Positions 1 through 41,434 are shown, counted from the stretch's first letter. The stretch is DNA of 43,613 bases from a virus (IMGVR_UViG_2654587728_000013:1-43613); one strand, 5' to 3'. The notes: generated by a model not told the origin, from the sequence alone. Made by a program: numbers and translations.

Positions 1-255
1 TTATTTCTCCGTATTCTTATCGATTAGCCGCATCATGCGTCTGAGCATTTTTTTGTATCGATCTGGTTCATCGAACTCAATAGAGAATCCTGGATCGCAA
101 AGTCCGCCATGTTCGTAATATGGTTTCTCAATCGGATATTTAGCCAATATTTTTGCATGCGCCTCCGCTCTTACCGCTGCCCTGCGCGTCAAAAAATGTC
201 GACCGCGAGAAGGAGAAAACCAGACTTTTTTCATTTGCATGGTCACCGTGCTCAT
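1..255 (-). CDS. hypothetical early protein (last gene of early-left operon)
   Basis: ORF 1..276(-); stop TAA at window position 1-3; start uncertain (ATG candidates at 276/255/240); follows coupled upstream gene. Confidence 0.4.
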   Translation of the reverse strand: MSTVTMQMKKVWFSPSRGRHFLTRRAAVRAEAHAKILAKYPIEKPYYEHGGLCDPGFSIEFDEPDRYKKMLRRMMRLIDKNTEK

Positions 256-428
256 ACTGTTCGTTCCTTCCCGCAAATATTAGATGTTGATGGCGCAGAG
301 TTATTAAGTGCCGCTGTTAGCATCTCAACATCACCGCGTAACCGGTTAATTTCATCGTCGCGCTGAACAATCACAGCGCGCTGCTCTTCCAGTTGGCGGA
401 TTAACTCCGCCTCATTGAACATGGTCAT
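252..428 (-). CDS. small hypothetical protein
   Basis: ORF frame 252..506(-); start MTMFNEAEL overlaps methyltransferase stop as ATGA (translational coupling). Confidence 0.4.
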   Translation of the reverse strand: MTMFNEAELIRQLEEQRAVIVQRDDEINRLRGDVEMLTAALNNSAPSTSNICGKERTV

Positions 429-1018
429 GCTGCCTCCGTCCTTACAACCGGAACAGAGCAGCCTGGTAGCAACTGCACCGACGGGCCTTCGCACTGATTG
501 CCCCATACGTCGAAACCATGTGACGACTGGCGGGCGAATAGCTCAATGCGCGGAACATCGCCCAGCAACTGCACCAGTTTTTCGCGGATGATGTCAGGCT
601 TGCGCGAGTTTTCCATGCGCGGCGCCGTGACGTGCTGGCAGATTGACGCATCCATGCGGGCCGGTAGTTTCCCACGCACCGCAAACAGGCAGTCTTCGCT
701 GTTCGCCCTTGTCATGTGGCCCATGCCGATCGCGCTGTTACCTTTGTGCTTATTCGTCTTGTGCCAGGTGAATCCCTTCATGGTCATCAGCTTGAAGCCC
801 CACGATTCGACCACTTTCAACGCCTCAACCGGCTGAGTAGGAACCCACCACATTGCCAGTAGGCAATCGTCGGCGGCAAGATCCCACACTGGCAGGCGGC
901 AGATATCCAGCACGTTCATCACCGGGTATTTAAACCCTGCTCCGCGCTCGCCGTCGGCTGCTTTGTCGCGGTATGTCCAGGGTGGATCTGCGTAGATAAG
1001 AGTGTATTTACCGGTCAT
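425..1018 (-). CDS. DNA N6-adenine methyltransferase, MT-A70 family (orphan phage methylase)
   Basis: 197 aa; motif IYADPPWTY (DPPW catalytic motif) near N-terminus. Confidence 0.85.
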   Translation of the reverse strand: MTGKYTLIYADPPWTYRDKAADGERGAGFKYPVMNVLDICRLPVWDLAADDCLLAMWWVPTQPVEALKVVESWGFKLMTMKGFTWHKTNKHKGNSAIGMGHMTRANSEDCLFAVRGKLPARMDASICQHVTAPRMENSRKPDIIREKLVQLLGDVPRIELFARQSSHGFDVWGNQCEGPSVQLLPGCSVPVVRTEAA

Positions 1019-1179
1019 TCTGCACCGCCTTTCACGAAAATGTTCATCAGCTCAGCAATGCGCTGAGCCTTTAATGGGTTTTTGATAACCTTTCTGCCTG
1101 GCACAATCCATCCGCAACGAAGAGCTGAATAAACCAGCGTGATGCTACCTACGCGGATATTGTCGTGAGGGTTAGTCAT
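1015..1179 (-). CDS. small hypothetical protein
   Basis: ORF 1015..1254(-); start trimmed to MTNPHDN to avoid overlap with upstream gene; stop overlaps methylase start. Confidence 0.3.
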   Translation of the reverse strand: MTNPHDNIRVGSITLVYSALRCGWIVPGRKVIKNPLKAQRIAELMNIFVKGGAE

Positions 1180-1471
1180 ACACCACCCCACGACATCCGA
1201 TCCCTGCATATTCGCCTCGGCGCAGGCCGTTACCTCTCGATATGCACTGATCACGGCGTATCGCTATTCTGGCGCGTTCAACCTCACCGACTGCTGCATC
1301 CATGCACAGCAACCAAAGCCTGGCTGCAATGCGGAACTGGCCTTTCGATTCTCGCTCAACAGCGCGCTTTTCTACCTCCATCGCCGCAGGAGTTACGGCG
1401 ACAACCTTTGAAGCCTGACGCTGAGACACATAGTTCAGGTGATACTTTTCAAGACGGGTTAATTTGCTCAT
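1172..1471 (-). CDS. hypothetical protein
   Basis: ORF 1172..1555(-); likely start MSKLTRLEKY at 1471. Confidence 0.45.
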   Translation of the reverse strand: MSKLTRLEKYHLNYVSQRQASKVVAVTPAAMEVEKRAVERESKGQFRIAARLWLLCMDAAVGEVERARIAIRRDQCISRGNGLRRGEYAGIGCRGVVYD

Positions 1472-1580
1472 CGGATCCAGCCTTCTCTGAAAATTACCGC
1501 CAGCAGATACAGCCAGGCGGAAACGGCGGTCAGGAATAAGTACCATCCTGACCATTTTTCCCAGTGCCTGATCAGCGCTG

Positions 1581-1832
1581 TCATGCGGCGTTACTTACTG
1601 GGCGGTAAACACGCTGATCAACCGGCGGCTTTTTTCCGGTGAACTCTGCCGGGCTGGTGGCCTGACGCTCATCAAGCCAGTTTTCAACCTCTTCAGCATT
1701 CCATGCACAACGTTTATCAGTGATCCAGAAGCGCTGCGGGAACTCGCCATTGCGCTCCATGCGGTCAATGGTGCTCATCGATACCGGCACCACTGCCATC
1801 AGTTCCTTTTTGCCAAATGCTCTTTTCATCAT
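1581..1832 (-). CDS. AlpA-family HTH transcriptional regulator / excisionase-like
   Basis: 83 aa; KELMAVVPVSMSTIDRMERNGEFPQ...AWNAEEVENWLDER matches AlpA/Xis-type HTH pattern; RBS AGAGAGG upstream. Confidence 0.7.
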   Translation of the reverse strand: MMKRAFGKKELMAVVPVSMSTIDRMERNGEFPQRFWITDKRCAWNAEEVENWLDERQATSPAEFTGKKPPVDQRVYRPVSNAA

Positions 1833-1875
1833 TACCTCTCTTGCATTTGCGACGCGCGCGGCGCCGCAGTGGTGG

Positions 1876-2757
1876 TTACATCGGTACTTCGTTCAGTTCG
1901 TCGCAGCGAATGGTGTAAACGTCAGTTGCTTTTGCCAGCAGGTCATCATCACCAGCCAGTTTCTGGGCAACGTATTTGTATGCTTTGTCCAGGTCAGCCT
2001 GGGTGTTGTAGTTCATCGCCGCGCCGGAAAATGCGTGCAAAATCTCTTCAGGACCGCGATCGTCTTTATGCTGCTGACGCTCTTCCTGCTTCTGCTCTGG
2101 TTTTGAGTTGATCAGGCTGTTCATGCCATGAGCCGTTGCCGCAGATGGCGTGATGTCGCGCTCAACACGCGGTGTTGTCTCCTGCAATTCGTCAGGGGTG
2201 TATACTCCGAGCAGAACATCAGGTGCATGCAGACGAGCCCAACGCTTAACGCACAGGTAAGCAAGCTGCTGTCGTGGATCCTGTTCCCACAGCGGAGAGT
2301 TACGGACACCTGCCTGAGCCATGCTGATGGTAAGCTCGCGCGGCTCTGCTTCGCCTTTCAGTACTGCCGATACTGTTACGGTCAGTGATGGTGATTTGTC
2401 GCTCTTGCCATTCACCTTTGACCAGTCACCATCCCAGCGGTAATTCAGGCGAGTTGAAAGCAGGTTTGAAGAAGACACGACGGCGTTAACCAGTTGTGCT
2501 TCATAGCCAAGAGTTCCGTTTACAACGTGCGTCTTCTGCGCAACAGCGAACGGGTTCATGCCCCATTGCGCCGCCTGCATGGTAACTGCCAGACAATCAG
2601 CAGGCTTTCCTGCCAGGTGCTGAGGAACGGTTGCTTTACTGTCTGCCATCAGGGTTGCGAAACGTACCAGGCGGTCCATACCCTCAGGACTGAATATTGC
2701 AGCCGCTGTCCCTACGGTAGCGCCTGGCTGTGATGTGATTGCGATATCGTTGCTCAT
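1876..2757 (-). CDS. recT: RecT-family single-strand annealing recombinase
   Basis: DRLVRFATLMADSKATVPQHLAGKPADCLAV...QWGMNPFAVAQKTHVVNGTLGYEAQL is characteristic of RecT; start MSNDIA overlaps upstream stop (ATGA). Confidence 0.85.
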   Translation of the reverse strand: MSNDIAITSQPGATVGTAAAIFSPEGMDRLVRFATLMADSKATVPQHLAGKPADCLAVTMQAAQWGMNPFAVAQKTHVVNGTLGYEAQLVNAVVSSSNLLSTRLNYRWDGDWSKVNGKSDKSPSLTVTVSAVLKGEAEPRELTISMAQAGVRNSPLWEQDPRQQLAYLCVKRWARLHAPDVLLGVYTPDELQETTPRVERDITPSAATAHGMNSLINSKPEQKQEERQQHKDDRGPEEILHAFSGAAMNYNTQADLDKAYKYVAQKLAGDDDLLAKATDVYTIRCDELNEVPM

Positions 2758-3575
2758 ACGTACATATCCTGTTTTCGTGCCCATTCAGGGCGTTTAATAA
2801 TTTCCACGCCGCCCCATTCATCGCTGATGCGGCATTCGTGATAGGTGTTCAGATCCCGGCGGAATAACTGATGCCCGGCGTCAACATCTGGCGCATCCAG
2901 CTCGAACACGCGGACAGGGTATCGACCGCAGTCGATGGTTTCGCTCACAGCCAGGAAGAAGAATCCGTGTGGCTGCCCGGTTACTTTCAGTGCGCCTTCG
3001 CGGTACATGGCGTCCTGGACGTGGTAGCGGAATTCCTCGATGTGACGGGCAAAGCGATCCATGTCTGCAACTTTTTTCACATCTACGATCACGTTGTGCT
3101 CATTCAGCCATTTATCTGGACGGATTCGGCACAGTTCGCCAGTCTCTTCGTCATTCCAGTACATCGACGCTTCATAGTGACCTGGTGCTTCCAGCATCCA
3201 CCTCGCCGCAGGGTGGGCCATTGCGCTGTCGCGCATCAGTTTCAGTTTCCGGCCCTGCTCGGCATCCATCACCGTCATACCCATGTCGGCAACGTCTTTC
3301 AGGAATGCTTCTTCGTCTGCTTTTCCCTGATTTGTGCGTCGGTTGAACTGTGGCGCCACGATGAAACGCTTATCGAATTCCTTCGGCTCCAGCAGCAGGC
3401 AGTGCAGAGCAGTACCCATGTCCAGTGCCGATTTTTTCTCTTCATCTTCCGGCGCTGCCTTGACCCATTTCAGAAGGGCAGGGTTCTTGGCCACCATATC
3501 CAGTTGTGACTTACTCACGCCGTCACCGGCGTGGTAGTCCTCGTTGCTGATGTCGAAATAGATACCGGTATTCAT
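2754..3575 (-). CDS. PD-(D/E)XK exonuclease (RecE/YqaJ-like partner of RecT)
   Basis: 273 aa; IVDVKK...EEFRYHVQ nuclease-like motifs; immediately upstream of and coupled to recT. Confidence 0.7.
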   Translation of the reverse strand: MNTGIYFDISNEDYHAGDGVSKSQLDMVAKNPALLKWVKAAPEDEEKKSALDMGTALHCLLLEPKEFDKRFIVAPQFNRRTNQGKADEEAFLKDVADMGMTVMDAEQGRKLKLMRDSAMAHPAARWMLEAPGHYEASMYWNDEETGELCRIRPDKWLNEHNVIVDVKKVADMDRFARHIEEFRYHVQDAMYREGALKVTGQPHGFFFLAVSETIDCGRYPVRVFELDAPDVDAGHQLFRRDLNTYHECRISDEWGGVEIIKRPEWARKQDMYV

Positions 3576-3874
3576 GCCGCATTCCTTTTGCTGTCGATCT
3601 GGTCAGCCAGGTCAAGACGGGCGATGACGCCAGTTAATTCACGTTTGAACGACGACATAAGCTCTTCGAAATCATCGCTTTCAAATGCCGCTTCCAGAAC
3701 TTCATAACGAACACCGGCACGGAGAATTGCCCGCTTGAATGACTCTTCCATTTCGCAACCAGCAACTGCTTCGATCAGCTCAACGTGGCGGTCGTACAGT
3801 TCAGATGACAGCTGGTAGTCATTGCTGAACTGAGTTGCTATTTTTTTCAGGTTATTGAATTGCTGAATGTGCAT
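3572..3874 (-). CDS. hypothetical protein
   Basis: ORF 3572..4003(-) trimmed to MHIQQFNNL start with GAGGTGG RBS; avoids overlap with upstream gene. Confidence 0.45.
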   Translation of the reverse strand: MHIQQFNNLKKIATQFSNDYQLSSELYDRHVELIEAVAGCEMEESFKRAILRAGVRYEVLEAAFESDDFEELMSSFKRELTGVIARLDLADQIDSKRNAA

Positions 3875-3881
3875 AGCCACC

Positions 3882-4874
3882 TCAGTAGTTGATGGTTGTT
3901 GCTGGAACTTTCCCGCGAGCGATGGCGACAACACATGCTTTCGCCCAGTCATCAGGAATACCCTGTTCAATGAGCGCCTGAACCGCAGCAGCATTAATGG
4001 CACGACGGTGCTCTACATCAGCAGCGCGTGCTGCCGCTTCATCAGCGATGCGCTTCTCTTCCGCCAGACGGGCTACTTCTTTCGCTTCAGCTTCACGCTT
4101 GATGCGATCGGCTTCTTCCTGCGCTTTGCGTTGCTCAACTGCGATAGCTTCCTGTTTTTCGCGCTCGGCACGATCTGCGGCTTCCTTCTTCTCTGCTTCA
4201 GCTTTTTGCTCTGTGGCAATGCGGTTACGCTCTGCTTGCTCTGCCTTGAGCTTTAATTCAGCCTCACGACGGGCAGATTCAGCGCGTTCACGCTCTATTT
4301 TCTCTTCAGCTTCACGCCTGGCCTTTTCTTCCGCCTGGCGCTTCAACTCTTCTTCATGAGCAATGCGCTGGCGCTCTGCTTCTTCTGCTTTCGCCTTCGC
4401 TTCTCGGTCGAATGCGTCGTTCATCAGCAGGGCCATCTCGTGATCCGCTTCGAACTTGGCAGCCCGCTCCTGATCGAACTTGATGTTCATCTCCAGTGCT
4501 TCGGCGTGCAGCACATTCATGGCTTCTTCAGCCTTGATGCGTTCCTGCTCGGCCTCCCATTCGGTAAGTGGGCGGCGAACCTCATCGCGCATCTCATCGC
4601 AAGCTGATACAAATCGACGCAGTTCAGCCTCAGCAGGTTTGACGGCTTCTTTCAGATGACGAAGGTAATCTCGACCAGGCTTTTCAACTGCTGTTTTACT
4701 GCGAGAAACCTGTGCTGCCAGAGATGCAATGCGGGCACGACCTTTGGCAGTGCTCAGGTCCGGAACTTCGTTAACGCTTTCGCGGATCTGTTCGAGGAAC
4801 TTTTCCAGACCGTTTTCTACGTAAATGCTTGGCGCCATATCTGGCGCAATTTCGATAATTGCTAATTCGCTCAC
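3882..4874 (-). CDS. highly charged coiled-coil protein (Glu/Arg/Ala/Lys-rich), function unknown
   Basis: 330 aa; ~200-aa central E/R/A/K heptad-like low-complexity region; GTG start with GGGGGTGAG RBS. Confidence 0.6.
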   Translation of the reverse strand: MSELAIIEIAPDMAPSIYVENGLEKFLEQIRESVNEVPDLSTAKGRARIASLAAQVSRSKTAVEKPGRDYLRHLKEAVKPAEAELRRFVSACDEMRDEVRRPLTEWEAEQERIKAEEAMNVLHAEALEMNIKFDQERAAKFEADHEMALLMNDAFDREAKAKAEEAERQRIAHEEELKRQAEEKARREAEEKIERERAESARREAELKLKAEQAERNRIATEQKAEAEKKEAADRAEREKQEAIAVEQRKAQEEADRIKREAEAKEVARLAEEKRIADEAAARAADVEHRRAINAAAVQALIEQGIPDDWAKACVVAIARGKVPATTINY

Positions 4875-5020
4875 TTACTCACCCCCATATCCATTTCCGT
4901 TTTTACCGCCAGCTTGCTGACGAATACCCAGTTCATTGCTTCACCCAGCGTGCGGAACTTCCAGCTCATCAGCCCGCAAGCTGTAACGCAGTACCAACCA
5001 TTGATGACTTTCCACTGCAT
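4871..5020 (-). CDS. small hypothetical protein, first gene of early-left operon
   Basis: Short version of ORF 4871..5152(-); start chosen at MQWKV (RBS AGAGAGG) because two perfect operator sites lie inside the longer ORF. Confidence 0.3.
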   Translation of the reverse strand: MQWKVINGWYCVTACGLMSWKFRTLGEAMNWVFVSKLAVKTEMDMGVSK

Positions 5021-5032
5021 ACGAACCTCTCT

Positions 5033-5188
5033 ATTACCATTTTGGTAATACCTGGAGATGCAGGAAAACCACGAAGTGGTGGTTTCTGCCTGAGCGATGC
5101 GCTCATGTATTACCTTTTGGGTAATAATCAGATCAAAAAGTGATTGTGTCAATAGGTATGACGAGAAAAAAATTACCGTTTTGGTAAT
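5033..5188. promoter_or_regulatory. OL-like operator triplet: ATTACC-N5-GGTAAT at 5033..5049, 5109..5125, 5172..5188
   Basis: Three perfect 17-bp palindromes spaced 76 and 63 bp; minus-strand TTGACA (5147-5152) 17 bp from GATTAT overlapping site 2. Confidence 0.6.
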
Positions 5189-5245
5189 TGCGTGAGGCGC
5201 GAGCTTACCGCCATCGGGCAGGTAAAGCGTCAGAATGGCGGGGGA

Positions 5246-5842
5246 TTACTTGCTTTTGTTCTGCTCAAACACGAAGTTAATGAATGAGGTGATCTTGTTT
5301 TTCTCTTCCTGAGGCAGAGCTGCATACAACCTGTGGTCGTAGTCGATAACACCAGGAGCGCCGACGGGAATAATCATCTCGTATGCTTCATGCCCGAACG
5401 CGCGCGCCAGGGAGGAAAGAACGCCGATAGTTGTGCTGACTTCCGCTTTCATAATCCGGTTAACTGTGGCCGGGCCAATACCAGCTGCTACAGCAACTTT
5501 CTTTTCTGATGTCATTTCCGTGTTCTTTCTCATCCAGGCATTGAGCGTGGCTGCAGCCTGCTTCTCTACAGTCCATTCGCCATCATCAGTGGCCGGAATA
5601 AAGATATCAGCCTGTACCGCGTCCAGTTCGTGATCGACATCAAGCCAGAACTTTTCTTTGCGCGCTGCTTCCTCAATGATACGCGCTGCATTTGGTCCGA
5701 TGTTTTTGATGCCAGTGCACCACCTGTTGACCAGGTTCTGCGAACGCTTCACACGTTCGGCAAAGCGCAACTGGGTATCATCGAAATCCCGGCGAATGAT
5801 TTCGTTAAGGTTTTTGCGTCTTATGTCATAAATACTTTTCAT
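5246..5842 (-). CDS. prophage repressor, tandem XRE-type HTH, no LexA-like peptidase domain
   Basis: 198 aa; two HTH-like segments (QLRFAERVKRSQNLVNRW... and EKKVAVAAGIGPATVNRIMKAE...); flanked by operator triplets; divergent from Cro-like gene. Confidence 0.6.
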   Translation of the reverse strand: MKSIYDIRRKNLNEIIRRDFDDTQLRFAERVKRSQNLVNRWCTGIKNIGPNAARIIEEAARKEKFWLDVDHELDAVQADIFIPATDDGEWTVEKQAAATLNAWMRKNTEMTSEKKVAVAAGIGPATVNRIMKAEVSTTIGVLSSLARAFGHEAYEMIIPVGAPGVIDYDHRLYAALPQEEKNKITSFINFVFEQNKSK

Positions 5843-5895
5843 AGCTATTGTATTTGTCCATTTAATGTTACCTAACTGACTAAATTTAAATGAAT

Positions 5896-5959
5896 ATTAC
5901 CATAAAGGTAAAGTTACCATAACGGTAATAATCATTGATTTTTTCACCAGAAAGGTAAT
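5896..5959. promoter_or_regulatory. OR-like operator triplet: 5896..5912, 5913..5929 (TTACC-N5-GGTAA) and 5943..5959 (TCACC variant)
   Basis: Divergent intergenic region between repressor and Cro-like gene; plus-strand TTGATT (5935-5940) then TAATAA/ATAATT about 17 bp downstream overlapping third site. Confidence 0.6.
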
Positions 5960-5997
5960 AATTCAGATATGAATAGACAGGCTGAGATAAGCAAAAT

Positions 5998-6231
5998 ATG
6001 AGTGACGAAAAAAAATTTGATTTCAAAAAGCACTGGCTGGGACTGTCTCCTGATGAGCGTGAAGCATTTGCAGATGAAGCCGGAACCACCAGTCATTACA
6101 TCCAGACTCACCTGACCGGGCGCCGCAAGATGCCGGGTAAGCGACTGATGGACGGGCTGTTTAAAGCATGTCGCTCCCGCGAATGGACAAAGTCTAAACC
6201 TGAATTAGTGCTCTTCTTCTACGACCGATAA
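5998..6231 (+). CDS. Cro-like HTH regulator
   Basis: 77 aa; first rightward gene divergent from repressor; HTH-like segment AGTTSHYIQTHLTGRRKMPGKRLMDGL. Confidence 0.5.
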   Translation: MSDEKKFDFKKHWLGLSPDEREAFADEAGTTSHYIQTHLTGRRKMPGKRLMDGLFKACRSREWTKSKPELVLFFYDR

Positions 6232-6379
6232 CCCTCCCTGAACCCATCAATGCCGTCATTACCTGGCGGCTCCTTCCTGCATAAAACACCTTTTCGGTAA
6301 TAAAAAACCATATACGGTTGATCTTTTTTTCTTCCTGCATCAAAATCATCGTAATAGTAAACGTTAATGAGGTTGTGCA

Positions 6380-6580
6380 ATGGAGATTATTACTCGCCTT
6401 GACGCTGCAAAGGCAGGTCTTAAGCGTTATTACACCGGAAAACAGTGTAAGCATGGTCATGACAGTGAGCGCTACGTTTACAACGGGCACTGCGTTACAT
6501 GCGCCATCAACACGAGCCTGCGCCGCCAGGCAGAAATAAAGCAGCTCATGGCCGAAGCCAGCCTGCAACACTCAAGCTGA
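6380..6580 (+). CDS. small zinc-binding protein, possible CII-position regulator
   Basis: 66 aa; Cys/His cluster CKHGHDSERYVYNGHCVTC; position between cro-like and replication genes. Confidence 0.35.
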   Translation: MEIITRLDAAKAGLKRYYTGKQCKHGHDSERYVYNGHCVTCAINTSLRRQAEIKQLMAEASLQHSS

Positions 6581-6595
6581 CGACAGGTATTTACC

Positions 6596-7414
6596 ATGAG
6601 CAGATACGCAACAGAGTGGGCATGGAAAACAAATCCGGGCAGCTCATCACTGAAACTCATCCTGCTCTCGATGGCTGATCGAGCCGATGAATACAACCTG
6701 TGCTATCCAAGCATCGAACGCCTGGTTACCGACACAAGCCTGAATAAAAAAACAGTTCAGGCTGGTCTTATTTCGCTCATCGGAATGGGGCTAATTTCAG
6801 ATACAGGAGAAAGAAAAGGGGCAACAAGAAGGGTCCGGGTTTTCTCTTTAAACATACCCAAAAACGGTAATGTTACCAATATTGGGAATATACCCAAAAA
6901 CGGGAAGTTGAATGATCCCAAAAACGGGAAGTTGAATGATCCCAAAAACGGGAAGTTGAATGATCCCAAAAACGGGAAGTTGAATGATCCCAAAAACGGG
7001 ATGCAGAACCTATCAGTTAACCAGTCATATAACCAAGAGAAGGAGAGGGGCGATAAAACTGGGGGTTTAGTGCCTCAGAGGACTGACGCTAACAACGCCG
7101 TGATTAACAACTTTGTCCCTCCTGGTGGACTGGGGCAATTCGGGAAATTTGTCATGCATGAGCACTGGTCACCATCGGATGATTTCCTCCGGGTGTCTTC
7201 ATTGCAGGGCATTAACCTGGATTGCCAGCCAACGCCACAGGAGCTTGCAGAGTTCAGGGTTTACTGGATGGCCGAGGGTAAGGCTTTCCACCATGCGCAA
7301 TGGGAGCAAAAACTTGCCAGACGTCTGCAGATCAGCAGACAGAACAAACTTACCTCACCTGAAAACAACGTACCGCACTGGAACAGTCCAGAGGCGTGGG
7401 AGGATTTCCTGTGA
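6596..7414 (+). CDS. replication initiation protein (lambda O-like) containing the origin iterons
   Basis: 272 aa; N-terminal HTH-like domain; internal PKNGKLND x4 repeats encoded by DNA iterons; followed by P-like gene. Confidence 0.75.
   Translation: MSRYATEWAWKTNPGSSSLKLILLSMADRADEYNLCYPSIERLVTDTSLNKKTVQAGLISLIGMGLISDTGERKGATRRVRVFSLNIPKNGNVTNIGNIPKNGKLNDPKNGKLNDPKNGKLNDPKNGKLNDPKNGMQNLSVNQSYNQEKERGDKTGGLVPQRTDANNAVINNFVPPGGLGQFGKFVMHEHWSPSDDFLRVSSLQGINLDCQPTPQELAEFRVYWMAEGKAFHHAQWEQKLARRLQISRQNKLTSPENNVPHWNSPEAWEDFL
6857..7000 (+). repeat. origin-like iteron array: 4 perfect 24-bp direct repeats (6893..6988) plus flanking partial copies
   Basis: CCCAAAAACGGGAAGTTGAATGAT x4, with CCCAAAAACGG partials at 6857 and 6989; lies inside the O-like gene as in lambda ori. 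Confidence 0.75.
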
Positions 7415-8196
7415 ATAACGTATTTACCGCCATCCAGAACCGAGACGGTGAGGCTATGGCCAGCTTAACCGGTTCAGACCGTCAATATGCAGGCAGCGAC
7501 AACGTTGTGAACATCACGGCAGAGCGCCTTGTAGATGCCCTGTTTAAACAGCTTAAGCAGCTATTCCCGGCAGCTGAGCAGACCAACCTGAAGACTCCGG
7601 CGCAGGAGACAGCAGCAAAGCAACAGTGGATCGCTGCATTCGCCGAAGGTGGCATCCGTACCCGTGAGCAGGTATCGGCAGGGATGCGACATGCCCGTGC
7701 CAGTGAATCACCGTTCTGGCCTTCACCTGGGCAATTCATCAAGTGGTGCAAAGACAGCAAGATGGTTCTGGGGATCAGCATTGATGACGTGATGGGGGAG
7801 TTTCACCGTTACGCCAAAGAGAAAAGCCTCCAGCCTGGTGGGCCCGAGAGATTCCCGTGGCGTCACCCGGTCATGTACTGGATTGTGTGTGATACCCGGA
7901 GGGCGATGTATCAGCGCCAGCTGAGTGAGGCTGAAGTTGAGAAGCATGCTCGCAAGCTGCTGGATGAATGGTCGGCAAAAGTGGCATCCGGTCACCAGAT
8001 TCCAGATCCGATACTCAGCATACAAGCCAAGCCAGAGCCAATGAGCACACCACAGACAGGCTCAGGTAACGCCTACCATCCACCAGGGCGAAGTTTCGGA
8101 TGCATGCCGAACGCAGCCACCCTGGGAGGGATAACGCCTGCACAGTGGCTCATGGAGGAATGCAGGCGAGGGAAGGCAGCAGGACTCATCAAGTAA
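7411..8196 (+). CDS. replication protein P-like helicase loader
   Basis: Recalled lambda P similarity (QQWIAAFAEGGIRTREQVSAGMRHAR...PSPGQFIKWCKD); GTG start at 7411 overlaps O-like stop (GTGA); ORF track start 7396. Confidence 0.75.
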   Translation: MNNVFTAIQNRDGEAMASLTGSDRQYAGSDNVVNITAERLVDALFKQLKQLFPAAEQTNLKTPAQETAAKQQWIAAFAEGGIRTREQVSAGMRHARASESPFWPSPGQFIKWCKDSKMVLGISIDDVMGEFHRYAKEKSLQPGGPERFPWRHPVMYWIVCDTRRAMYQRQLSEAEVEKHARKLLDEWSAKVASGHQIPDPILSIQAKPEPMSTPQTGSGNAYHPPGRSFGCMPNAATLGGITPAQWLMEECRRGKAAGLIK

Positions 8197-8232
8197 TACC
8201 AGCGCAGTAGCGCATTTTTTTACATCCAATGA

Positions 8233-8249
8233 ATTACCAAAAGGGTAAT
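8233..8249. promoter_or_regulatory. operator copy ATTACC-AAAAG-GGTAAT
   Basis: Perfect TTACC-N5-GGTAA in intergenic region upstream of resolvase gene. Confidence 0.5.
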
Positions 8250-8294
8250 AAAATATGCGCATTGCTATTGAAATTAACCCATTTGTGGTTTTAA

Positions 8295-8311
8295 ATTACC
8301 TGAGAGGTAAA
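8295..8311. promoter_or_regulatory. operator copy ATTACC-TGAGA-GGTAAA overlapping RBS of resolvase gene
   Basis: Perfect TTACC-N5-GGTAA ending 3 bp before ATG at 8314. Confidence 0.5.
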
Positions 8312-8313
8312 TC

Positions 8314-8778
8314 ATGGCGGCAGTATTAGGGATTGACCCAGGATGCAGCGGATCTCTGGTCCTGATAACTGAGCAGGGCGGATACATCGACCACCTGGCA
8401 ATGCCGACCATCAAGGTTGGGACAAAGTCCAGAGTCAACGGCGCAGCGGTGGCTGCATGGCTGCGTAAGTACGGAATTACGCACGCATACCTCGAGCAGG
8501 TGGGCGCAATGCCAGGGCAGGGAACGGCGAGCATGTTCACGTTCGGTCATGCCGCTGGGGTAGCGGAGGGGATCCTGCAGGGTCTCAACATTCCGTACAC
8601 GCTGGTAACGCCGCAGGCCTGGAAGAAGTCAGCCGGTCTCATCGGAAGTGACAAGGACGCGGCACGCAGCAGAGCAATTCAGCTCTACCCGGAACTCAGG
8701 GCGCTGGATGCAAAAGCGAAAGGTCAGGCCATAGCTGATGCGCTGTTAATCGCCAGGCACGGGATCGGTATCAAATAA
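8314..8778 (+). CDS. RuvC-like Holliday junction resolvase
   Basis: 154 aa; N-terminal LGIDPGCSGSLVL resembles RuvC-family catalytic motif. Confidence 0.65.
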   Translation: MAAVLGIDPGCSGSLVLITEQGGYIDHLAMPTIKVGTKSRVNGAAVAAWLRKYGITHAYLEQVGAMPGQGTASMFTFGHAAGVAEGILQGLNIPYTLVTPQAWKKSAGLIGSDKDAARSRAIQLYPELRALDAKAKGQAIADALLIARHGIGIK

Positions 8779-8834
8779 CGATCCTTTTAGTTATCAAACT
8801 AATCAATAACTTATACGGGTAAGCGAGGGTAATA

Positions 8835-9152
8835 ATGGGAAGCAATATCATTGAGTTAGCGAAGTTAGGACATGAGCGCGCGGCTGAACTGAAAGCATCA
8901 TGCGGTGCTGTCGACGTGCGCAGCATGGCGCAACTGATTAGCGATCTGGCTACACAACTTGAAGTGCAGCATGTTCGCTCAACCAGCATGGCAGTACAGC
9001 TCGCTAACGCCGAGAGCAAGTGCAGGGAGCTGGAATCTCGGACGGTCAATCTTCCTGAAGCACTGAACAGTTACGCTGGCGTGAAAATCTATCGCCCGAA
9101 TGATGTTATCGAAGCAATCCGCGCCGCTGGCATTGGCGTGAAGGGGGATTGA
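8835..9152 (+). CDS. hypothetical protein (possibly Ead/Ea22-like)
   Basis: 105 aa; RBS GAGGGTAATA; family assignment is a recollection only. Confidence 0.4.
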   Translation: MGSNIIELAKLGHERAAELKASCGAVDVRSMAQLISDLATQLEVQHVRSTSMAVQLANAESKCRELESRTVNLPEALNSYAGVKIYRPNDVIEAIRAAGIGVKGD

Positions 9153-9153
9153 G

Positions 9154-9525
9154 ATGGCACTGACGAAAAAACAACGTGCAGAGCTACGCATGAAGTTTGG
9201 CGGTCGCTGTGCTTACTGTGGGTGTGAGCTTGGAGATAAATGGCATGCAGACCATGTAAAGCCAGTTCTTAGGCACATGAACGGAGGCGGCATGATTCAT
9301 GCAGAAAACGACAATGAGGCAAATATGGTTCCGGCCTGTCACCCATGCAATCTGCATAAACACTGCAGTAGCCTGGAAGATTACCGGCGAATTATCGGTG
9401 ATGGTCGTCGTGAATTCCTTGTGTCCGGGAAAGGAAAAGCGCTAGTTCGTATGGGGTTGGTTGAAATGAAATCTGACCCAGTGGTGTTCTGGTTCGAAAA
9501 ATATCAAGAAGGAGCGTCAGCATGA
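9154..9525 (+). CDS. HNH endonuclease
   Basis: 123 aa; CAYCGCEL...HADHVKP...N...CHPCNLHK zinc-finger HNH motif. Confidence 0.8.
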   Translation: MALTKKQRAELRMKFGGRCAYCGCELGDKWHADHVKPVLRHMNGGGMIHAENDNEANMVPACHPCNLHKHCSSLEDYRRIIGDGRREFLVSGKGKALVRMGLVEMKSDPVVFWFEKYQEGASA

Positions 9526-10229
9526 CAACTAACAACCACCCGGCGAACGGCCCTGTATCACTCGATCGCCTGCACCAGATAAGCGAAATACTCAGTAAAG
9601 CAGCAGCACAAAGCGACGGCGGTAATCTCGGCTACGCAATGGTTGATGCTGTGAAGGTGATTGATGGAGCGATTGCTTCGTTTGGTGCTGATCCTGTTGG
9701 TTACTTCTACGCAGAGAAACCAGGCGATTGGTATCAAATTTCAGATGGAGACAGAGTACCAAGTCATAGGAGTATACCGCTTTACGCCAGACCGCAGTCA
9801 TCGCCAGTAGTGAAACTACCGAATGAATTCATCAGCAGTGAGGGTATCGTTGTTCAGATAGAAAAGTTGATGGCTGTGCTAGCAGTGCATGGAATTCAGT
9901 ATGAGCGCAGAGGTAACGCATGCTGCTCTGCCATGCTTCAGACTGGCAACTCTCCGGTGACTCCGGATGGTTGGATTCCGGTAAGCGAGCGGATACCTGA
10001 AGGAAGCGAAGAAGTTTTATGCACCAAAGAATTTGATGGTCCTGGTGACTGGCGCAAGAAGGTAGGTTATTGGCTCGCAGGGAAATGGACAGTGTATGGC
10101 GCATCATGGACGCCAACTCACTGGATGCCACTTCCAGCAGCACCGCAGCAGGAGGTGAAATCAGCGCTTGAACATGGGATGCAGCGTTACGCCGGAGCTA
10201 TGCAAAAACTGTCAGAAGGGGATAAGTGA
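9522..10229 (+). CDS. DUF551-type phage protein
   Basis: 235 aa; C-terminal W..P.THWMPLP motif typical of DUF551. Confidence 0.55.
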   Translation: MTTNNHPANGPVSLDRLHQISEILSKAAAQSDGGNLGYAMVDAVKVIDGAIASFGADPVGYFYAEKPGDWYQISDGDRVPSHRSIPLYARPQSSPVVKLPNEFISSEGIVVQIEKLMAVLAVHGIQYERRGNACCSAMLQTGNSPVTPDGWIPVSERIPEGSEEVLCTKEFDGPGDWRKKVGYWLAGKWTVYGASWTPTHWMPLPAAPQQEVKSALEHGMQRYAGAMQKLSEGDK

Positions 10230-10314
10230 TGCCGCCAGTTAAAGTGGTTGTTATTACGCTGGCTATGTGCGCTATCTGCCAGTTAATTGCTGCCTCTGGA
10301 ATGGGGATTTGGTG

Positions 10315-10653
10315 ATGGCTAAATCCGCAGCAGAGCGCAAAGCAGCGCAGCGTGCCCGCCAGGCTGAATCTGGTAACCGCAAGCTGGAATTGCAACTAGA
10401 CGAGCAGGAACTGGAGATGCTGGCGAGAAACTGCGCCGCCCGTCGCCCTGGTCGGGCGCCGTATGACATGAACGAGTACATCGCGTTGCTTATACGCCAG
10501 GATGATGCGCGGGTTCGTGGGCGCATCAAGTCAATCAGCTCTAACCGTTGCGGGAAATGTGGCGATGCGCTGCCAGTTGAGTCGTGTCCGTGTGATGGTG
10601 ATTCGGCATGCTGGGTGACGCGTGGCTGGCATGATACTAAACTAGCGGTGTGA
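10315..10653 (+). CDS. hypothetical Cys-rich protein
   Basis: ORF 10267..10653 trimmed to MAKSAAERKAAQ; C-terminal CGKCGD...CPCDGDSAC cluster; last gene before terminase. Confidence 0.45.
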   Translation: MAKSAAERKAAQRARQAESGNRKLELQLDEQELEMLARNCAARRPGRAPYDMNEYIALLIRQDDARVRGRIKSISSNRCGKCGDALPVESCPCDGDSACWVTRGWHDTKLAV

Positions 10654-10661
10654 CATGTCAC
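10650..10661. repeat. 12-bp palindrome GTGACATGTCAC (copy 1 of 3) overlapping stop codon
   Basis: Exact palindrome; same sequence at 13166..13177 and 31721..31732, each next to a GC hairpin. Confidence 0.6.
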
Positions 10662-10681
10662 GATAGAGACAATAAATTGCA

Positions 10682-10712
10682 AAGGCCGCCGACTATGGCG
10701 GCTTTGTTTTGC
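10682..10712 (+). terminator. rho-independent terminator
   Basis: AAAGGCCGCC-GACTAT-GGCGGC followed by TTTGTTTTG. Confidence 0.6.
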
Positions 10713-10720
10713 GTGTTACT

Positions 10721-10737
10721 ATTACCAAAACGGTAAT
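10721..10737. promoter_or_regulatory. operator copy ATTACC-AAAAC-GGTAAT upstream of terminase genes
   Basis: Perfect TTACC-N5-GGTAA between terminator and small terminase start. Confidence 0.5.
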
Positions 10738-10756
10738 TATTACTTCGGTGGTAACA

Positions 10757-11350
10757 ATGCCCGCAGAACCAAAAGCACCAAAACGCAAATCAACGCAGTA
10801 TAAGCCAATTACAGCGATGCAGGAGGCTTACGCGCAGGAATATACCAAATGCCCTGAGAATCAGACTCAGGCAGCGATTAACGCAGGATTTTCGCCAAAT
10901 ACGGCGGCAGTCAAGGCCAGTGTCATGATGCGTGATGAGCGTATCCAGAAACGGATCGCCGAACTGATGGAAGAGCGTAACAAGCGTTTGCGCGTCAGTG
11001 CGGACTACGTACTGCTCCGCCTGGTGGAAATTGACCAGATGGACGTGATCGATATCCTGAACGATGACGGCACACTGAAGCCTATCCGCGAGTGGCCAAA
11101 GATATGGCGTACTACACTGAGCGGTTTCGATTTGTCATCGACCATCATGAATATGAACGAGGATTCGATAGAAACAATCCTCAAAAAAATCAAATGGCCT
11201 GACAAGGTGAAGAACCTCGAGCTTATCGGTAAGCACGTCGACGTCAATGCGTTCAAAGAGCGCATGGAGGTTTCCGGCACAGTAACGATTGCCGACCGCA
11301 TGGCGAAGGCCCGCCGTCGCGTGAAAGAGCTGGATGGTGGTGAAGAATGA
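10757..11350 (+). CDS. terS: terminase small subunit
   Basis: ORF 10709..11350 trimmed to MPAEPKAPKRK; P27-like small terminase signature (AYAQEY...AAINAGFSP); immediately upstream of large subunit. Confidence 0.7.
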   Translation: MPAEPKAPKRKSTQYKPITAMQEAYAQEYTKCPENQTQAAINAGFSPNTAAVKASVMMRDERIQKRIAELMEERNKRLRVSADYVLLRLVEIDQMDVIDILNDDGTLKPIREWPKIWRTTLSGFDLSSTIMNMNEDSIETILKKIKWPDKVKNLELIGKHVDVNAFKERMEVSGTVTIADRMAKARRRVKELDGGEE

Positions 11351-12822
11351 CAGCCGCAGCCATGTCGCCGGAAGAGCAGCTTGTCGAGGATATTGCATCG
11401 TTCACATATGACCCGCTGGGCTATTCGCTGTATGCGTTTCCGTGGGGCGAAGAGGGGACAGAACTGGCGCATGCCACCGGCCCGCGAAAATGGCAGGCAG
11501 ACGCATTCCGCGAGATACGCGATCACCTGCAGAATCCAGCAACGCGTCACCAGCCGCTGATGTTGGCCCGCGCATCCGGCCACGGTATCGGTAAATCTGC
11601 GTTCATCTCGATGCTCATCAACTGGGGCATGTCTACCTGTGAAGACTGCAAGGTGGTGGTGACCGCCAACACCGACAACCAGCTGCGCACCAAAACATGG
11701 CCTGAAATCATCAAATGGTCGAACCTGGCTATCACGAAAGAGTGGTTCACCTGCACCGCCACCGCGATGTACAGCAACGATCCCGGTCACGACAAACGCT
11801 GGCGCGCTGATGCTATTCCATGGTCTGAACACAACACCGAGGCGTTCGCCGGTCTGCACAACGAACGCAAGCGCATCATCGTTGTATTCGATGAAGCGTC
11901 CAACATTGCCGATCTGGTGTGGGAAGTTGCCGAGGGTGCGCTGACGGACGAAGACACCGAAATCATCTGGGTGGCGTTCGGGAACCCTACGCGTAACACC
12001 GGGCGTTTCCGTGAATGCTTCCGCAAATACAAACACCGCTGGAAGTGCGCGCAGATAGACAGCCGCACCGTGGAAGGCACCAACAAGCAGCAGTTGCAGA
12101 AGTGGGTTGATGACTACGGCGAGGATAGCGACTTCGTGAAAGTTCGTGTACGCGGGATCTTCCCTGATGCGTCTGAACTCCAGTTTATCCCGACAGGCCT
12201 GACTGATTCCGCAATGAAGCGCGTGGTGACAGCCGGGCAGGTGGCGCACGCTCCGGTGATTATCGGTGTTGACCCGGCGTATTCCGGTGTGGATGACGCG
12301 GTGATATACCTGCGCCAGGGGCTTCACAGCAAAGTGCTATGGACCGGCAATAAGACAACCGATGATCTGATTATGGCAAAGCGTATCGCTGATTTTGAAG
12401 ACCAGTACCAGGCTGACGCTGTATTCATCGACTTCGGGTATGGTACCGGGCTGAAGTCAATCGGTGATGGCTGGGGCCGTTCCTGGCAACTGATACCTTT
12501 CGGCGGCGGCTCTACCGATCCGCAGATGCTCAACAAGCGCGGCGAGATGTTCAACAGCTGCAAAACGTGGCTGAAAATTGGTGGCGCACTGGATGACCAG
12601 GAAACGGCTGACGACCTGTCGGCGGCTGAGTACAAAGTCAGGGTGGACGGCAAGATAGTTATTGAGCCGAAGGAAGATATCAAAGAGCGGTTAGGCCGTT
12701 CTCCTGGCAAGGGTGATGCGCTGCTGCTGACGTTTGCTTTCCCGGTGTCGAAACGTATGAATATACCAGGACAGCAAAGCCAGCAGGGCAAGGCGTTGAC
12801 AGAATACGACCCCTATGCATAG
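11347..12822 (+). CDS. terL: terminase large subunit
   Basis: 491 aa; Walker A-like ASGHGIGKS, Walker B-like IIVVFDEASN; ATGA overlap with small subunit. Confidence 0.85.
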   Translation: MTAAAMSPEEQLVEDIASFTYDPLGYSLYAFPWGEEGTELAHATGPRKWQADAFREIRDHLQNPATRHQPLMLARASGHGIGKSAFISMLINWGMSTCEDCKVVVTANTDNQLRTKTWPEIIKWSNLAITKEWFTCTATAMYSNDPGHDKRWRADAIPWSEHNTEAFAGLHNERKRIIVVFDEASNIADLVWEVAEGALTDEDTEIIWVAFGNPTRNTGRFRECFRKYKHRWKCAQIDSRTVEGTNKQQLQKWVDDYGEDSDFVKVRVRGIFPDASELQFIPTGLTDSAMKRVVTAGQVAHAPVIIGVDPAYSGVDDAVIYLRQGLHSKVLWTGNKTTDDLIMAKRIADFEDQYQADAVFIDFGYGTGLKSIGDGWGRSWQLIPFGGGSTDPQMLNKRGEMFNSCKTWLKIGGALDDQETADDLSAAEYKVRVDGKIVIEPKEDIKERLGRSPGKGDALLLTFAFPVSKRMNIPGQQSQQGKALTEYDPYA

Positions 12823-13094
12823 TGAATTGATATCAGAGCTACAACCAAGGCAACTAATGCAATGATTAGTGACGCACCAGTTAGCAAAAGTGATGCGGTA
12901 TTCATCATGCGCTGATAATAGAATGCACGCATTGACTCTATTCTTTCACCGGTCTCAGCAGGGTCTTTTAATCCATTAGGGAATGTGCTTTCAAATCCTT
13001 CAAATACCTTTCTTTCAATGGCATTGTGCATGGCCATGTTCCACTCATGGGTTGAGTTCACAAAGGTATTAACAATTTTTTGTTTAATTTTCAT
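12813..13094 (-). CDS. small C-terminally membrane-anchored protein (moron)
   Basis: ORF 12813..13172 trimmed to MKIKQK so it excludes the terminator hairpin; C-terminal TM helix LLLTGASLIIALVALVVALISI; opposite strand to flanking operon. Confidence 0.45.
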   Translation of the reverse strand: MKIKQKIVNTFVNSTHEWNMAMHNAIERKVFEGFESTFPNGLKDPAETGERIESMRAFYYQRMMNTASLLLTGASLIIALVALVVALISIHYA

Positions 13095-13136
13095 GGTCCA
13101 CTCGCTGTGATAATCGAATGAGTGATTATGCCATAC

Positions 13137-13160
13137 AAAAAAGCCCGCGCATCGGCGGGC
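13137..13160 (-). terminator. rho-independent terminator (minus strand)
   Basis: GCCCGC-GCATCG-GCGGGC hairpin with T-run on minus strand, just downstream of stop of 13182..13613. Confidence 0.55.
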
Positions 13161-13165
13161 TGAAT

Positions 13166-13177
13166 GTGACATGTCAC
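13166..13177. repeat. 12-bp palindrome GTGACATGTCAC (copy 2 of 3)
   Basis: Exact copy; lies between stop of 13182..13613 and its terminator hairpin. Confidence 0.6.
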
Positions 13178-13181
13178 AGCG

Positions 13182-13613
13182 TTATATCAAATCTTTCCAT
13201 TCTACCCATTTTCCAGTTCTGCGATGGACCTCATCTCGTTTCAAAAACAGCAACTCCCTGCATCGTTCGCAGCCATCAAACTCATCGGAATTATTCTTGA
13301 AATTTTTTGCTCGGCGATACGTATAAATCCCGCAAACACAACGAGCAACATAGCGAGCACCTTTATTTTTTGCTCCTTGCGTGACAGCAAGGCCAATTAT
13401 TGTCAATCTCCCGCGCTTTCTTCCGATCATTGCTTTCACTTCTCGCCGTTGTTGCGGGTTTTTAATGTTATATACAGAAAACACTGGCAACGGCAGATCG
13501 CTGTCTCCTGTCTGGATAACTTTGTTTGGTGTCCAATCCACGCCCTTACCAACAACTCTCGCAGCAACCCGGTCAACCGGAAGGCGCTTCATGTCAAACA
13601 GGTCTTTGCTCAT
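13182..13613 (-). CDS. hypothetical basic Cys-cluster protein (moron)
   Basis: 143 aa; RBS AAGGTGAG; C-terminal CVCG...CERC cluster; opposite strand to flanking terminase/portal genes. Confidence 0.5.
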   Translation of the reverse strand: MSKDLFDMKRLPVDRVAARVVGKGVDWTPNKVIQTGDSDLPLPVFSVYNIKNPQQRREVKAMIGRKRGRLTIIGLAVTQGAKNKGARYVARCVCGIYTYRRAKNFKNNSDEFDGCERCRELLFLKRDEVHRRTGKWVEWKDLI

Positions 13614-14250: not shown

Positions 14251-14267
14251 ATTACCTAAAAGGTAAT
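14251..14267. promoter_or_regulatory. operator copy ATTACC-TAAAA-GGTAAT upstream of portal operon
   Basis: Perfect TTACC-N5-GGTAA about 90 bp upstream of small ORF 14357. Confidence 0.5.
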
Positions 14268-32418: not shown

Positions 32419-32435
32419 TTTACCTTTGAGGTAAT
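32419..32435. promoter_or_regulatory. operator copy TTTACC-TTTGA-GGTAAT over RBS of small ORF
   Basis: Perfect TTACC-N5-GGTAA. Confidence 0.5.
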
Positions 32436-32499: not shown

Positions 32500-33198
32500 T
32501 CAGAACTTACCAGTCATGCTGTTGATGTACTGCGCATGAGTCTGGATATCGCGCAGGCATTTACTGGCGCCGACAATGTAGCTCATCATGGCCGCGAACT
32601 CTGCTACAGCACCTTCAACATCATGCCCGTCTGCGTCCAGTTGGCGTAGCAGGCTCATCATCAAAGAGTGCTCTGTCAGACCAAGAACACCTTCAGGTGA
32701 ATGGATGTGTTCACGGTAGTTTGGCTTGAGTGGGGCGCTGTATTCCTGTTTCTCTTCCGTCTTCATCGCTTCCAGAATGGCGGGCATGAAGCTGGCTACA
32801 ACCTTTTGCGCTTTGTCTGCCGGTGATAATTCTTCACGAACGTATCGACCAGTGCGGCGGATTTGCGGAAGAACGTCGCCAGTTACCCATTTGCGGAAAC
32901 GATAGGGGATAGTACCAGGAGTTACCGCATCGCGGCAGCGCAGGATCAGAGTGTAGAGGCCGGATTCAGAGATGATGAGGGTATTAGGGTTCCCTCGTTT
33001 TCCGTCGGTTAAAGCGACGGTATTCTTTTCGTCGTCATCCAATTTAAGCAGAGCATCACGGTTGTTTGATATACCAAGAGCATTACATACATCTAACGCA
33101 ATAAACCATGGCTCGCCGTCGATGATGATTGCACGAATATCGGCTTGCGATTCGAAAGAAAAAACTGAAGTATTTTTTTGAGTTGTCATAGTGATCAC
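32500..33198 (-). CDS. Bro-N domain antirepressor
   Basis: 232 aa; N-terminal FSFESQADIRAIIIDGEPWFIALDVCNALGI matches Bro-N; distinct C-terminal domain. Confidence 0.7.
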   Translation of the reverse strand: MITMTTQKNTSVFSFESQADIRAIIIDGEPWFIALDVCNALGISNNRDALLKLDDDEKNTVALTDGKRGNPNTLIISESGLYTLILRCRDAVTPGTIPYRFRKWVTGDVLPQIRRTGRYVREELSPADKAQKVVASFMPAILEAMKTEEKQEYSAPLKPNYREHIHSPEGVLGLTEHSLMMSLLRQLDADGHDVEGAVAEFAAMMSYIVGASKCLRDIQTHAQYINSMTGKF

Positions 33199-33457
33199 CT
33201 TTTAGTCTGGTTAATCACCACCGGAGGTTCCAATCTCGGAGGTGGTGAACTGTGCAGGGTTGGAACTACCGGCTAAAAGGACCCGGCGCACCTTTCGGTG
33301 CCCCCACACAGCCCACCATAATGCGAATGTGGCCGTGCTTAACGCATAAAAAAACCGCTTGCGCGGTGAATGCGCCTTTTAGTATCCGGGGTTCCAATCC
33401 CGGCACTGGATTTTGCCAGTGCCTGATCACTATGGCACAAGTATTTTGCGTTGTAAA

Positions 33458-33474
33458 TTTACCGTAAAGGTAAT
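33458..33474. promoter_or_regulatory. operator copy TTTACC-GTAAA-GGTAAT in antirepressor promoter region
   Basis: Perfect TTACC-N5-GGTAA. Confidence 0.5.
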
Positions 33475-33840: not shown

Positions 33841-33857
33841 ATTACCTGTAAGGTAAT
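33841..33857. promoter_or_regulatory. operator copy ATTACC-TGTAA-GGTAAT between antirepressor paralog and tailspike
   Basis: Perfect TTACC-N5-GGTAA in divergent intergenic region. Confidence 0.5.
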
Positions 33858-41311: not shown

Positions 41312-41434
41312 TTAATAATCAGTGATTTAAGTGGATATACTTCTTTTATCTACGCCAGGAGAGCAATTTTAGCCGCTAAAATTTACTGAATCTTTACTGG
41401 TTTTATCTGGATTGCATAAAAAGGAAAAATAAAA

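Follow-up and report, generated by a model that had tools for sequence, protein, structure and literature searches.

Why should a temperate phage carry a solitary adenine methyltransferase in the same operon as a pair of recombination genes, and what does such an enzyme modify? The question is raised by the left end of the viral stretch IMGVR_UViG_2654587728_000013 (43,613 nucleotides, hereafter the window), which, judged from its sequence, is a chromosomal Uetakevirus (epsilon15/SPN1S-like) provirus at guaA with its own integrase cut off. An earlier note on this DNA had singled out positions 425–3575, which are bounded by the stop codon of an MT-A70 methyltransferase gene and the start codon of an exonuclease gene (both minus strand), and the genes named there are all in place according to Pfam and PHROGs matches. 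The module as such is a well-conserved and annotated phage module that is known already. Its methyltransferase is probably a stand-alone DNA methyltransferase with the specificity of the host enzyme Dam (GATC), encoded together with a RecE-domain exonuclease and RecT under the control of a phage repressor.

Identity and probable target of the methyltransferase

The methyltransferase comprises little beyond a catalytic core, and matches PF05063 over the complete profile (positions 1–172 of 172, E=2.8e-25, 89.7 bits against a cut-off of 23.9). The DPPW motif (motif IV, residues 11–14) is located near the N-terminus, before NSRKP (137–141), IELFAR (158–163), and WGNQ (172–175), which is the permuted motif order of the beta class, and all of these align with MTA1-type chains. 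The PDB matches are MT-A70 chains (E=1.8e-13), with MTA1-type enzymes as the best and METTL3 also among the closest, and the protein is called MTase_II by PADLOC. We predict that it transfers a methyl group from S-adenosylmethionine (SAM) to the N6 position of adenine. The ratio of nonsynonymous to synonymous substitution rates (dN/dS) is 0.04–0.07 at dS values of 0.6–0.95; the enzyme is under strong purifying selection, which argues only for a functional protein.

The gene is coupled to those of DUF1317 and a 58-residue protein by ATGA overlaps, which places it in the same operon as the recombination genes, as the earlier note had proposed. The note had also seen no cognate restriction enzyme, and scans with Pfam, PADLOC, PHROGs, and NCBIfam detected no restriction endonuclease in the operon or among the other scanned prophage open reading frames (ORFs), so that this claim stands as well. 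The only nucleases recovered in these scans are the RecE-like exonuclease, a RuvC-like resolvase, and a small HNH protein, the remaining ORFs otherwise having structural, replication, and lysis functions. PADLOC finds the MTase_II component alone of a Type II restriction-modification pair, and the neighbouring genes encode proteins of 54, 58, and 84 residues, each with a match to a conserved phage family. Within the limits of profile detection, which divergent restriction enzymes could escape, the methyltransferase is an orphan.

The case for GATC as the target is made by the homologues. Three prokaryotic MT-A70 enzymes with specificity data were found (M.EfaBMDam, BZS1 p32, and M.EcoGV), and all are reported to be GATC-specific. 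Serratia phage BZS1 p32, acting alone in dam− Escherichia coli, renders the DNA resistant to MboI and sensitive to DpnI (PMC7556043). GATC specificity is also cited for M.EfaBMDam of Tn1549 (in PMC7556043), and M.EcoGV from an O104:H4 Shiga toxin (Stx) phage is cited as methylating GATC in vivo if overproduced (PMC6602927, PMC10810198). Because BZS1 p32 and M.EfaBMDam are only 41% identical (PMC7556043, PMC6602927), GATC specificity appears to hold across wide MT-A70 divergence. The window enzyme shares the beta-class core with these proteins. It is 46% identical to HK639_35, a homologue of BZS1 p32 (75% identity; PMC7556043), and the two have a common C-terminus, LLPGC..V..TEAA. The HK639 gene is likewise found in a leftward operon downstream of RecT, but differs in an insertion of about 24 residues in the middle of the domain. 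Over residues 1–187, the window enzyme is 74% identical to Stx-phage PA8 gp5 (M.EcoPA8orf6770P), to which M.EcoGV is described as highly similar (PMC10810198, PMC6602927). PA8 gp5/M.EcoGV and the window enzyme are both MT-A70 proteins with the same motifs, and in both cases the gene lies in a leftward prophage operon, close to its integrase end. By analogy with these homologues, DNA would be the substrate and GATC the target. We accordingly rank a Dam-isospecific enzyme first, a DNA enzyme of other or relaxed specificity second, and an RNA-directed enzyme third.

Several points nevertheless weigh against a Dam-isospecific enzyme. In enterobacteria, GATC methylation is largely redundant with that of the host Dam, and since the activity would duplicate that of the host, its selective benefit is unexplained. 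The role of phage Dam-like enzymes has been called not well understood (PMC7556043), no methylation work on any Uetakevirus was found in the literature, and purified PA8 gp5 was almost inactive on dam− DNA in vitro (PMC10810198). Furthermore, the GATC frequency is unremarkable among four-nucleotide palindromes (165 sites in bases 1–39800, observed/expected 0.8 in a Markov model), and site statistics therefore neither support nor contradict a GATC target. There is no avoidance, enrichment, or clustering of GATC in the prophage, where the sites are spread evenly with at most four per 100–300 bp, and random placement does as well or better. Since the sites are no denser than with random placement, a GATC cluster like that of P1 pac is absent, and the suggestion in the earlier note that the methyltransferase may mark DNA for packaging is left without support. 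The anti-restriction role that it also considered is plausible, although host Dam would already fill it to a large extent. The same note would have taken the lack of a phage-specific methylation motif as a refutation of its proposal; because a Dam-isospecific enzyme adds no new motif in a dam+ host, such an outcome would be a false negative, and this test misleads.

If GATC is not the target, the next candidate is a DNA adenine methyltransferase of non-GATC or relaxed specificity that gives broad protection against host Type I–III systems. Anti-restriction is a common role of solitary phage methyltransferases, and the 197-residue protein has no separate target-recognition domain when set against the 172-position catalytic profile. 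Few substitutions can change the specificity, and prophage adenine methyltransferases of the relaxed type exist in M.EcoGII (PMC5778455) and the Serratia OS31 enzyme (PMC7556043). However, no evidence was seen that would place M.EcoGII or the OS31 enzyme in the MT-A70 group, their sequences not having been compared here, and the three MT-A70 enzymes with specificity data are all reported as GATC-specific despite their divergence. We regard this alternative as unlikely, if worth keeping in mind.

An RNA target, which is absent from the earlier note, has to be considered because of PA8, i.e., a function in which methylation of host 16S ribosomal RNA (rRNA) would tune translation or prophage induction. 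The PA8 enzyme to which the window enzyme is so similar is reported to be nearly inactive on DNA and, once in complex with PNB-2, to act preferentially on the 16S rRNA of 30S subunits (PMC10810198); the RNA writer METTL3 is, as noted above, among the closest solved structures. The RNA preference in PA8 came, however, from PNB-2, which is encoded just upstream of the methyltransferase (PMC10810198), and the gene in that place in the window is DUF1317. A tblastn search with PA8 gp6 and gp7 found no PNB-2 or PNB-1 homologue anywhere in the window, no PNB-2 match being better than E=0.9. Moreover, the alignment with PA8 gp5 ends at residue 187, and the tails that follow are unrelated: the window enzyme has the LLPGC..TEAA tail seen in HK639_35 in place of the 21-residue C-terminal tail that the Stx enzyme is proposed to require for binding PNB-2, and according to the authors, variants without the PA8 tail do not co-occur with PNB-2 (PMC10810198). 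The PA8 study did not establish which rRNA base is modified (PMC10810198), and the best PDB matches of the window enzyme are ciliate MTA1-type DNA N6-methyladenine (6mA) enzymes. An RNA-directed function thus seems improbable to us.

A related proposal starts from the position just upstream of the methyltransferase gene, which was compared in 80 IMG/VR loci that encode a methyltransferase with 89% or more identity to the window enzyme. The gene in this slot is highly variable, and almost always overlaps the methyltransferase start by four nucleotides. In about 31 of the 80 loci, DUF1317 directly abuts the methyltransferase, so that many close relatives are devoid of a partner gene; ASCH-domain (about 16), DUF1382 (about 8), and PDDEXK_5-like proteins (6, under the Pfam cut-off) are found in others, together with rarer occupants, i.e., DGQHR/DndB-like (2), MmcB-like (2), PAPS-reductase-like (1), and SAM-methyltransferase-like (1) proteins and several unknowns. 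In Stx phages, PNB-2 occupies the same slot, and the window represents the empty state at the equivalent position (1015–1018). These observations may point to interchangeable partners of the MT-A70 core, or the slot may be merely a permissive hot spot for insertion; as it is empty in the window, our assessment of the module is unaffected. According to the first possibility, the core would be a catalytic module for which the slot proteins set the substrate, whether a DNA motif or RNA, rather than a fixed mimic of Dam, and the window enzyme would be a partner-less ground state that might act on RNA or on single-stranded RecET recombination intermediates. We give such a scheme little credence, about as little as an RNA target.

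The methyltransferase could also belong to a cryptic restriction-modification or defence system whose nuclease has gone unrecognised in one of the adjacent genes, but this is hardly credible. A few close relatives do carry a PD-(D/E)XK-like gene just upstream (PDDEXK_5 at 23.9 bits, which is below cut-off, or MmcB-like), and profile searches often miss restriction enzymes. In the window, however, the small flanking proteins belong to conserved phage families without nuclease signature, the RecE-like nuclease is clearly identified as a recombination enzyme, and the larger genes at 41435–43613 lie on a different mobile element, 99.8% identical in E. coli, that has its own integrase but not this methyltransferase.

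The RecE/RecT pair and the early-left operon

An end-to-end alignment links the exonuclease to the C-terminal nuclease domain of E. coli RecE, whose crystal structure is known (PDB code 3H4R, E=1.2e-83); the protein also matches positions 606–873 of the 877-position exonuclease VIII model (NCBIfam PRK09709, E=4.6e-96). The motifs RPDK (residues 152–155) and DVKK (165–168) line up with RecE, and the catalytic D...D-x-K pattern is retained. RecT scores 109 bits against PF03837 (cut-off 24), while a comparison with PDB sequences gave no useful match. Its start is assigned to the ATG at 2757 and not to the upstream ATG at 2784, which gives a protein equal in length to SPN1S RecT, and the start overlaps the exonuclease stop in an ATGA at 2757–2754. 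By homology, the two proteins are a true RecE-domain/RecT pair related to RecET of Rac. As in Rac, the full RecE nuclease domain is present, with RecT immediately downstream and translationally coupled, but unlike Rac RecE, the window exonuclease consists of the C-terminal domain only. A further difference is that no Gam-like inhibitor was recognised. The Exo/Beta proteins of lambda Red are the functional analogues of RecE/RecT. The RecE-domain identity, the RecT profile match, and the ATGA coupling bear out the recombineering pair of the earlier note, with the activity itself predicted.

Rebuilding the gene junctions from the sequence shows that the operon extends past 425–3575 in both directions, from a promoter resembling the lambda leftward promoter (PL) at 5152–5124 down to base 1. 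This repressor-controlled minus-strand unit (window 1–5152) has 12 genes and 11 junctions: seven ATGA overlaps, one GTGA overlap, one 8-nucleotide overlap, and two short gaps of 7 and 43 nucleotides. Within 425–3575, ATGA overlaps link the exonuclease to RecT, the excisionase-like (Xis) gene to the 38-residue ORF, the latter to the PerC-like gene, and DUF1317 to the methyltransferase; at the borders, they link the 100-residue gene to the exonuclease (3575–3572) and the methyltransferase to the 58-residue gene (428–425). The start-stop linkage described for successive genes thus applies to most junctions, but not to that between PerC and DUF1317, which is the 8-nucleotide overlap ATGACTAA, nor to that between RecT and Xis, which is the 43-nucleotide gap and contains a GC hairpin. 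In epsilon15, the counterpart of this hairpin has been annotated as a stem-loop for transcriptional pausing. A crude promoter scan revealed no promoter inside the operon. Plus-strand antisense ORFs of 112–212 residues within the operon have no family matches and were judged spurious.

Directly upstream of the operon are a helix-turn-helix (HTH) repressor gene (5246–5842) and a divergent cro-like gene (5998–6231). The PL-like promoter is positioned between the repressor gene and the first operon gene, with operator palindromes on either side; the location of these palindromes matches that of the repressor-binding sites annotated in epsilon15. This is a lambda-style arrangement of left operator (OL) and PL, and the label "early-left" is therefore correct. 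Expression of the methyltransferase is predicted to occur only after derepression. The palindrome ATTACC-N5-GGTAAT occurs in 12 copies in the window when at most one mismatch is allowed, compared with 0.05 expected by chance. In addition to OL (5033–5188), copies are found at 5896–5929, 8233–8311, 10721–10737, 14251–14267, 32419–32435, 33458–33474, and 33841–33857, i.e., at the right operator (OR) and also ahead of the late, replication, and antirepressor regions. This recurrence suggests repressor control of numerous promoters throughout the prophage.

Table 1. Genes and control elements of the early-left operon, in window coordinates
Feature	Position	Strand	Evidence and remarks
84-residue protein (phrog_21496), last operon gene	1–255	−	PHROGs; convergent with the integrase just left of the window
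58-residue protein (phrog_4701)	252–428	−	PHROGs; ATGA overlap with methyltransferase stop
Solitary MT-A70 (beta-class) N6-adenine methyltransferase, 197 residues, catalytic core only	425–1018	−	PF05063
DUF1317 small protein, 54 residues	1015–1179	−	PF07026, E=2.5e-21; ATGA overlap with methyltransferase start
PerC-like transcriptional activator, 99 residues	1172–1471	−	phrog_868, E=2e-55; Pfam PerC E=6e-4, under gathering score
38-residue membrane protein, epsilon15 gp32 homologue	1468–1584	−	phrog_17484, E=1e-28; ATGA overlaps on both sides
AlpA/excisionase-like HTH protein, 83 residues	1581–1832	−	PF05930, E=1.2e-5; phrog_66
GC-rich hairpin in the 43-nucleotide RecT–Xis spacer, without U-tract	1848–1868	−	−13.6 kcal/mol
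RecT single-strand annealing protein, 293 residues	1876–2757	−	PF03837, E=2.5e-31; phrog_561, E=1e-136
RecE-type PD-(D/E)XK 5′–3′ exonuclease, nuclease domain only, 273 residues	2754–3575	−	DUF3799; PDB 3H4R; PRK09709
100-residue gp36-like protein (phrog_856)	3572–3874	−	PHROGs; ATGA overlap with exonuclease start
330-residue charged Glu/Ala/Lys/Arg-rich protein (phrog_1376)	3882–4874	−	PHROGs
49-residue gp37-like protein (phrog_898), first operon gene	4871–5020	−	PHROGs; epsilon15 gp37 is of the same size
Three operator palindromes ATTACC-N5-GGTAAT (OL)	5033–5049, 5109–5125, 5172–5188 (span 5033–5188)		Palindrome count
PL-like sigma-70 promoter of the early-left operon, TTGACA-17-GATTAT	5124–5152	−	10/12 matches

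The first gene of the operon, encoding the gp37-like protein, overlaps the following phrog_1376 gene by GTGA. Between the phrog_1376 gene and the RecET genes downstream of it lies the gp36-like gene alone. The phrog_1376 gene is found in the E2348/69 prophage and not in SPN1S or epsilon15, and its product has no Pfam, PADLOC, or PDB match. The protein could be a recombination accessory.

Relatives and boundaries of the provirus

The region 363–6330 has 92–93% nucleotide identity to the Salmonella phages SPN1S, PAT1, 65FD, and SPC32H, and about 91% to epsilon15 (Uetakevirus); the guaA prophage of enteropathogenic E. coli (EPEC) E2348/69 is 97% identical. At the protein level, the methyltransferase is 98.5% identical to the SPN1S enzyme and 94% identical to that of epsilon15. 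Relatives of the SPN1S/epsilon15 type annotate the same genes with the same functions, and the gene order (gp37, gp36, exonuclease VIII, RecT, Xis/AlpA, 38-residue ORF, PerC-like, DUF1317, methyltransferase, small ORF) is shared with SPN1S, SPC32H, PAT1, epsilon15, and the E2348/69 prophage. In contrast to these relatives, the window has neither the DGQHR/DndB-like and HNH genes of SPN1S, nor the ASCH gene of E2348/69, nor the C5-cytosine methyltransferase of epsilon15, and adds the phrog_1376 gene and the terminal 84-residue gene to these Uetakevirus-type operons. The module is widespread, and was retrieved from 42 phage records by nucleotide search, 516 phage records by methyltransferase protein, at least 598 IMG/VR stretches, and 470 of 5426 complete E. 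coli genomes.

The guaA integration site is common to the window, E2348/69, and Citrobacter braakii. In a near-identical IMG/VR contig (99.6% over window 1–13047) and a C. braakii genome, guaA followed by a 417-residue integrase gene lies just left of base 1, the integrase being three nucleotides beyond base 1 in the near-identical contigs (L008 13003–14256, L006 5363–6616), and it is on this basis that the window is described as a provirus with its own integrase cut off. The two ends of the window coincide exactly with a stop codon and a start codon, respectively, and this suggests that the provirus call was trimmed at gene edges.

A second mobile element is present in tandem at the guaA site (window 39800–43613), with a 396-residue integrase (40121–41311) and the last 15 nucleotides of guaA repeated at 39800–39814. 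This segment is 99.8% identical to an E. coli guaA island, in which RepA and Trb conjugation genes follow and the methyltransferase is missing. The genes for 209- and 323-residue proteins at 41435–43613 are without family match and are part of this island. They were considered as the missing restriction enzyme on a circular genome, at which the window ends on gene boundaries and a GGAG seven nucleotides upstream of the would-be junction ATG hinted. No copy of the junction sequence is present in the viral and genome collections searched, near-identical contigs have the phage integrase gene and guaA directly left of base 1, and the genes travel with another integrase and without this methyltransferase; both circularity and operon membership of these genes were therefore rejected.

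Two further features of the prophage are noted. Rfam identifies a C4 antisense RNA (77 bits, 33238–33323, minus strand) and an isrK Hfq-binding RNA (76 bits, 33348–33422, minus strand), both upstream of a Bro-N antirepressor-like gene (32500–33198, minus strand). The arrangement resembles an antirepressor module under RNA control, in the style of P1/P7 but in an epsilon15-like prophage. A patch of lower GC content (0.47) at 12813–13613, situated between the genes of the large terminase and the portal protein, contains two minus-strand ORFs of 119 and 143 residues. These oppose the late operon in orientation, lack significant family matches, and may represent a moron insertion.

Proposed role of the module

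On release of the repressor, a single leftward transcript would be initiated at the PL-like promoter and translated as a chain of coupled genes. The minimal RecE nuclease domain is expected to resect double-strand ends in the 5′–3′ direction, and RecT to anneal the exposed single strands, which would promote recombination of the phage and the replication that depends on it. The MT-A70 core, encoded farther downstream on this transcript, would most likely methylate N6 of adenine in GATC, thereby placing the same mark as host Dam, and would maintain full methylation of the fast-replicating, recombining phage DNA whenever host Dam becomes limiting. Two benefits of such an activity can be put forward, both speculative. 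The first is protection from GATC cutters that are sensitive to N6-methyladenine. The second, for which the co-expression of the methyltransferase with RecET is the rationale, is that full methylation of nascent and recombinant DNA would block MutH incision at hemimethylated GATC sites in RecET heteroduplexes.

The discovery value of the locus is small, as the same annotated module is present in sequenced Uetakevirus phages and hundreds of enterobacterial prophages. What it does provide is a clean, partner-less test case for the role of the "Dam-like" MT-A70 enzymes of phages, where redundant GATC methylation stands against the claimed methylation of rRNA, and for the related question of what co-expression with RecET means functionally, e.g., in suppressing MutH-directed mismatch repair.

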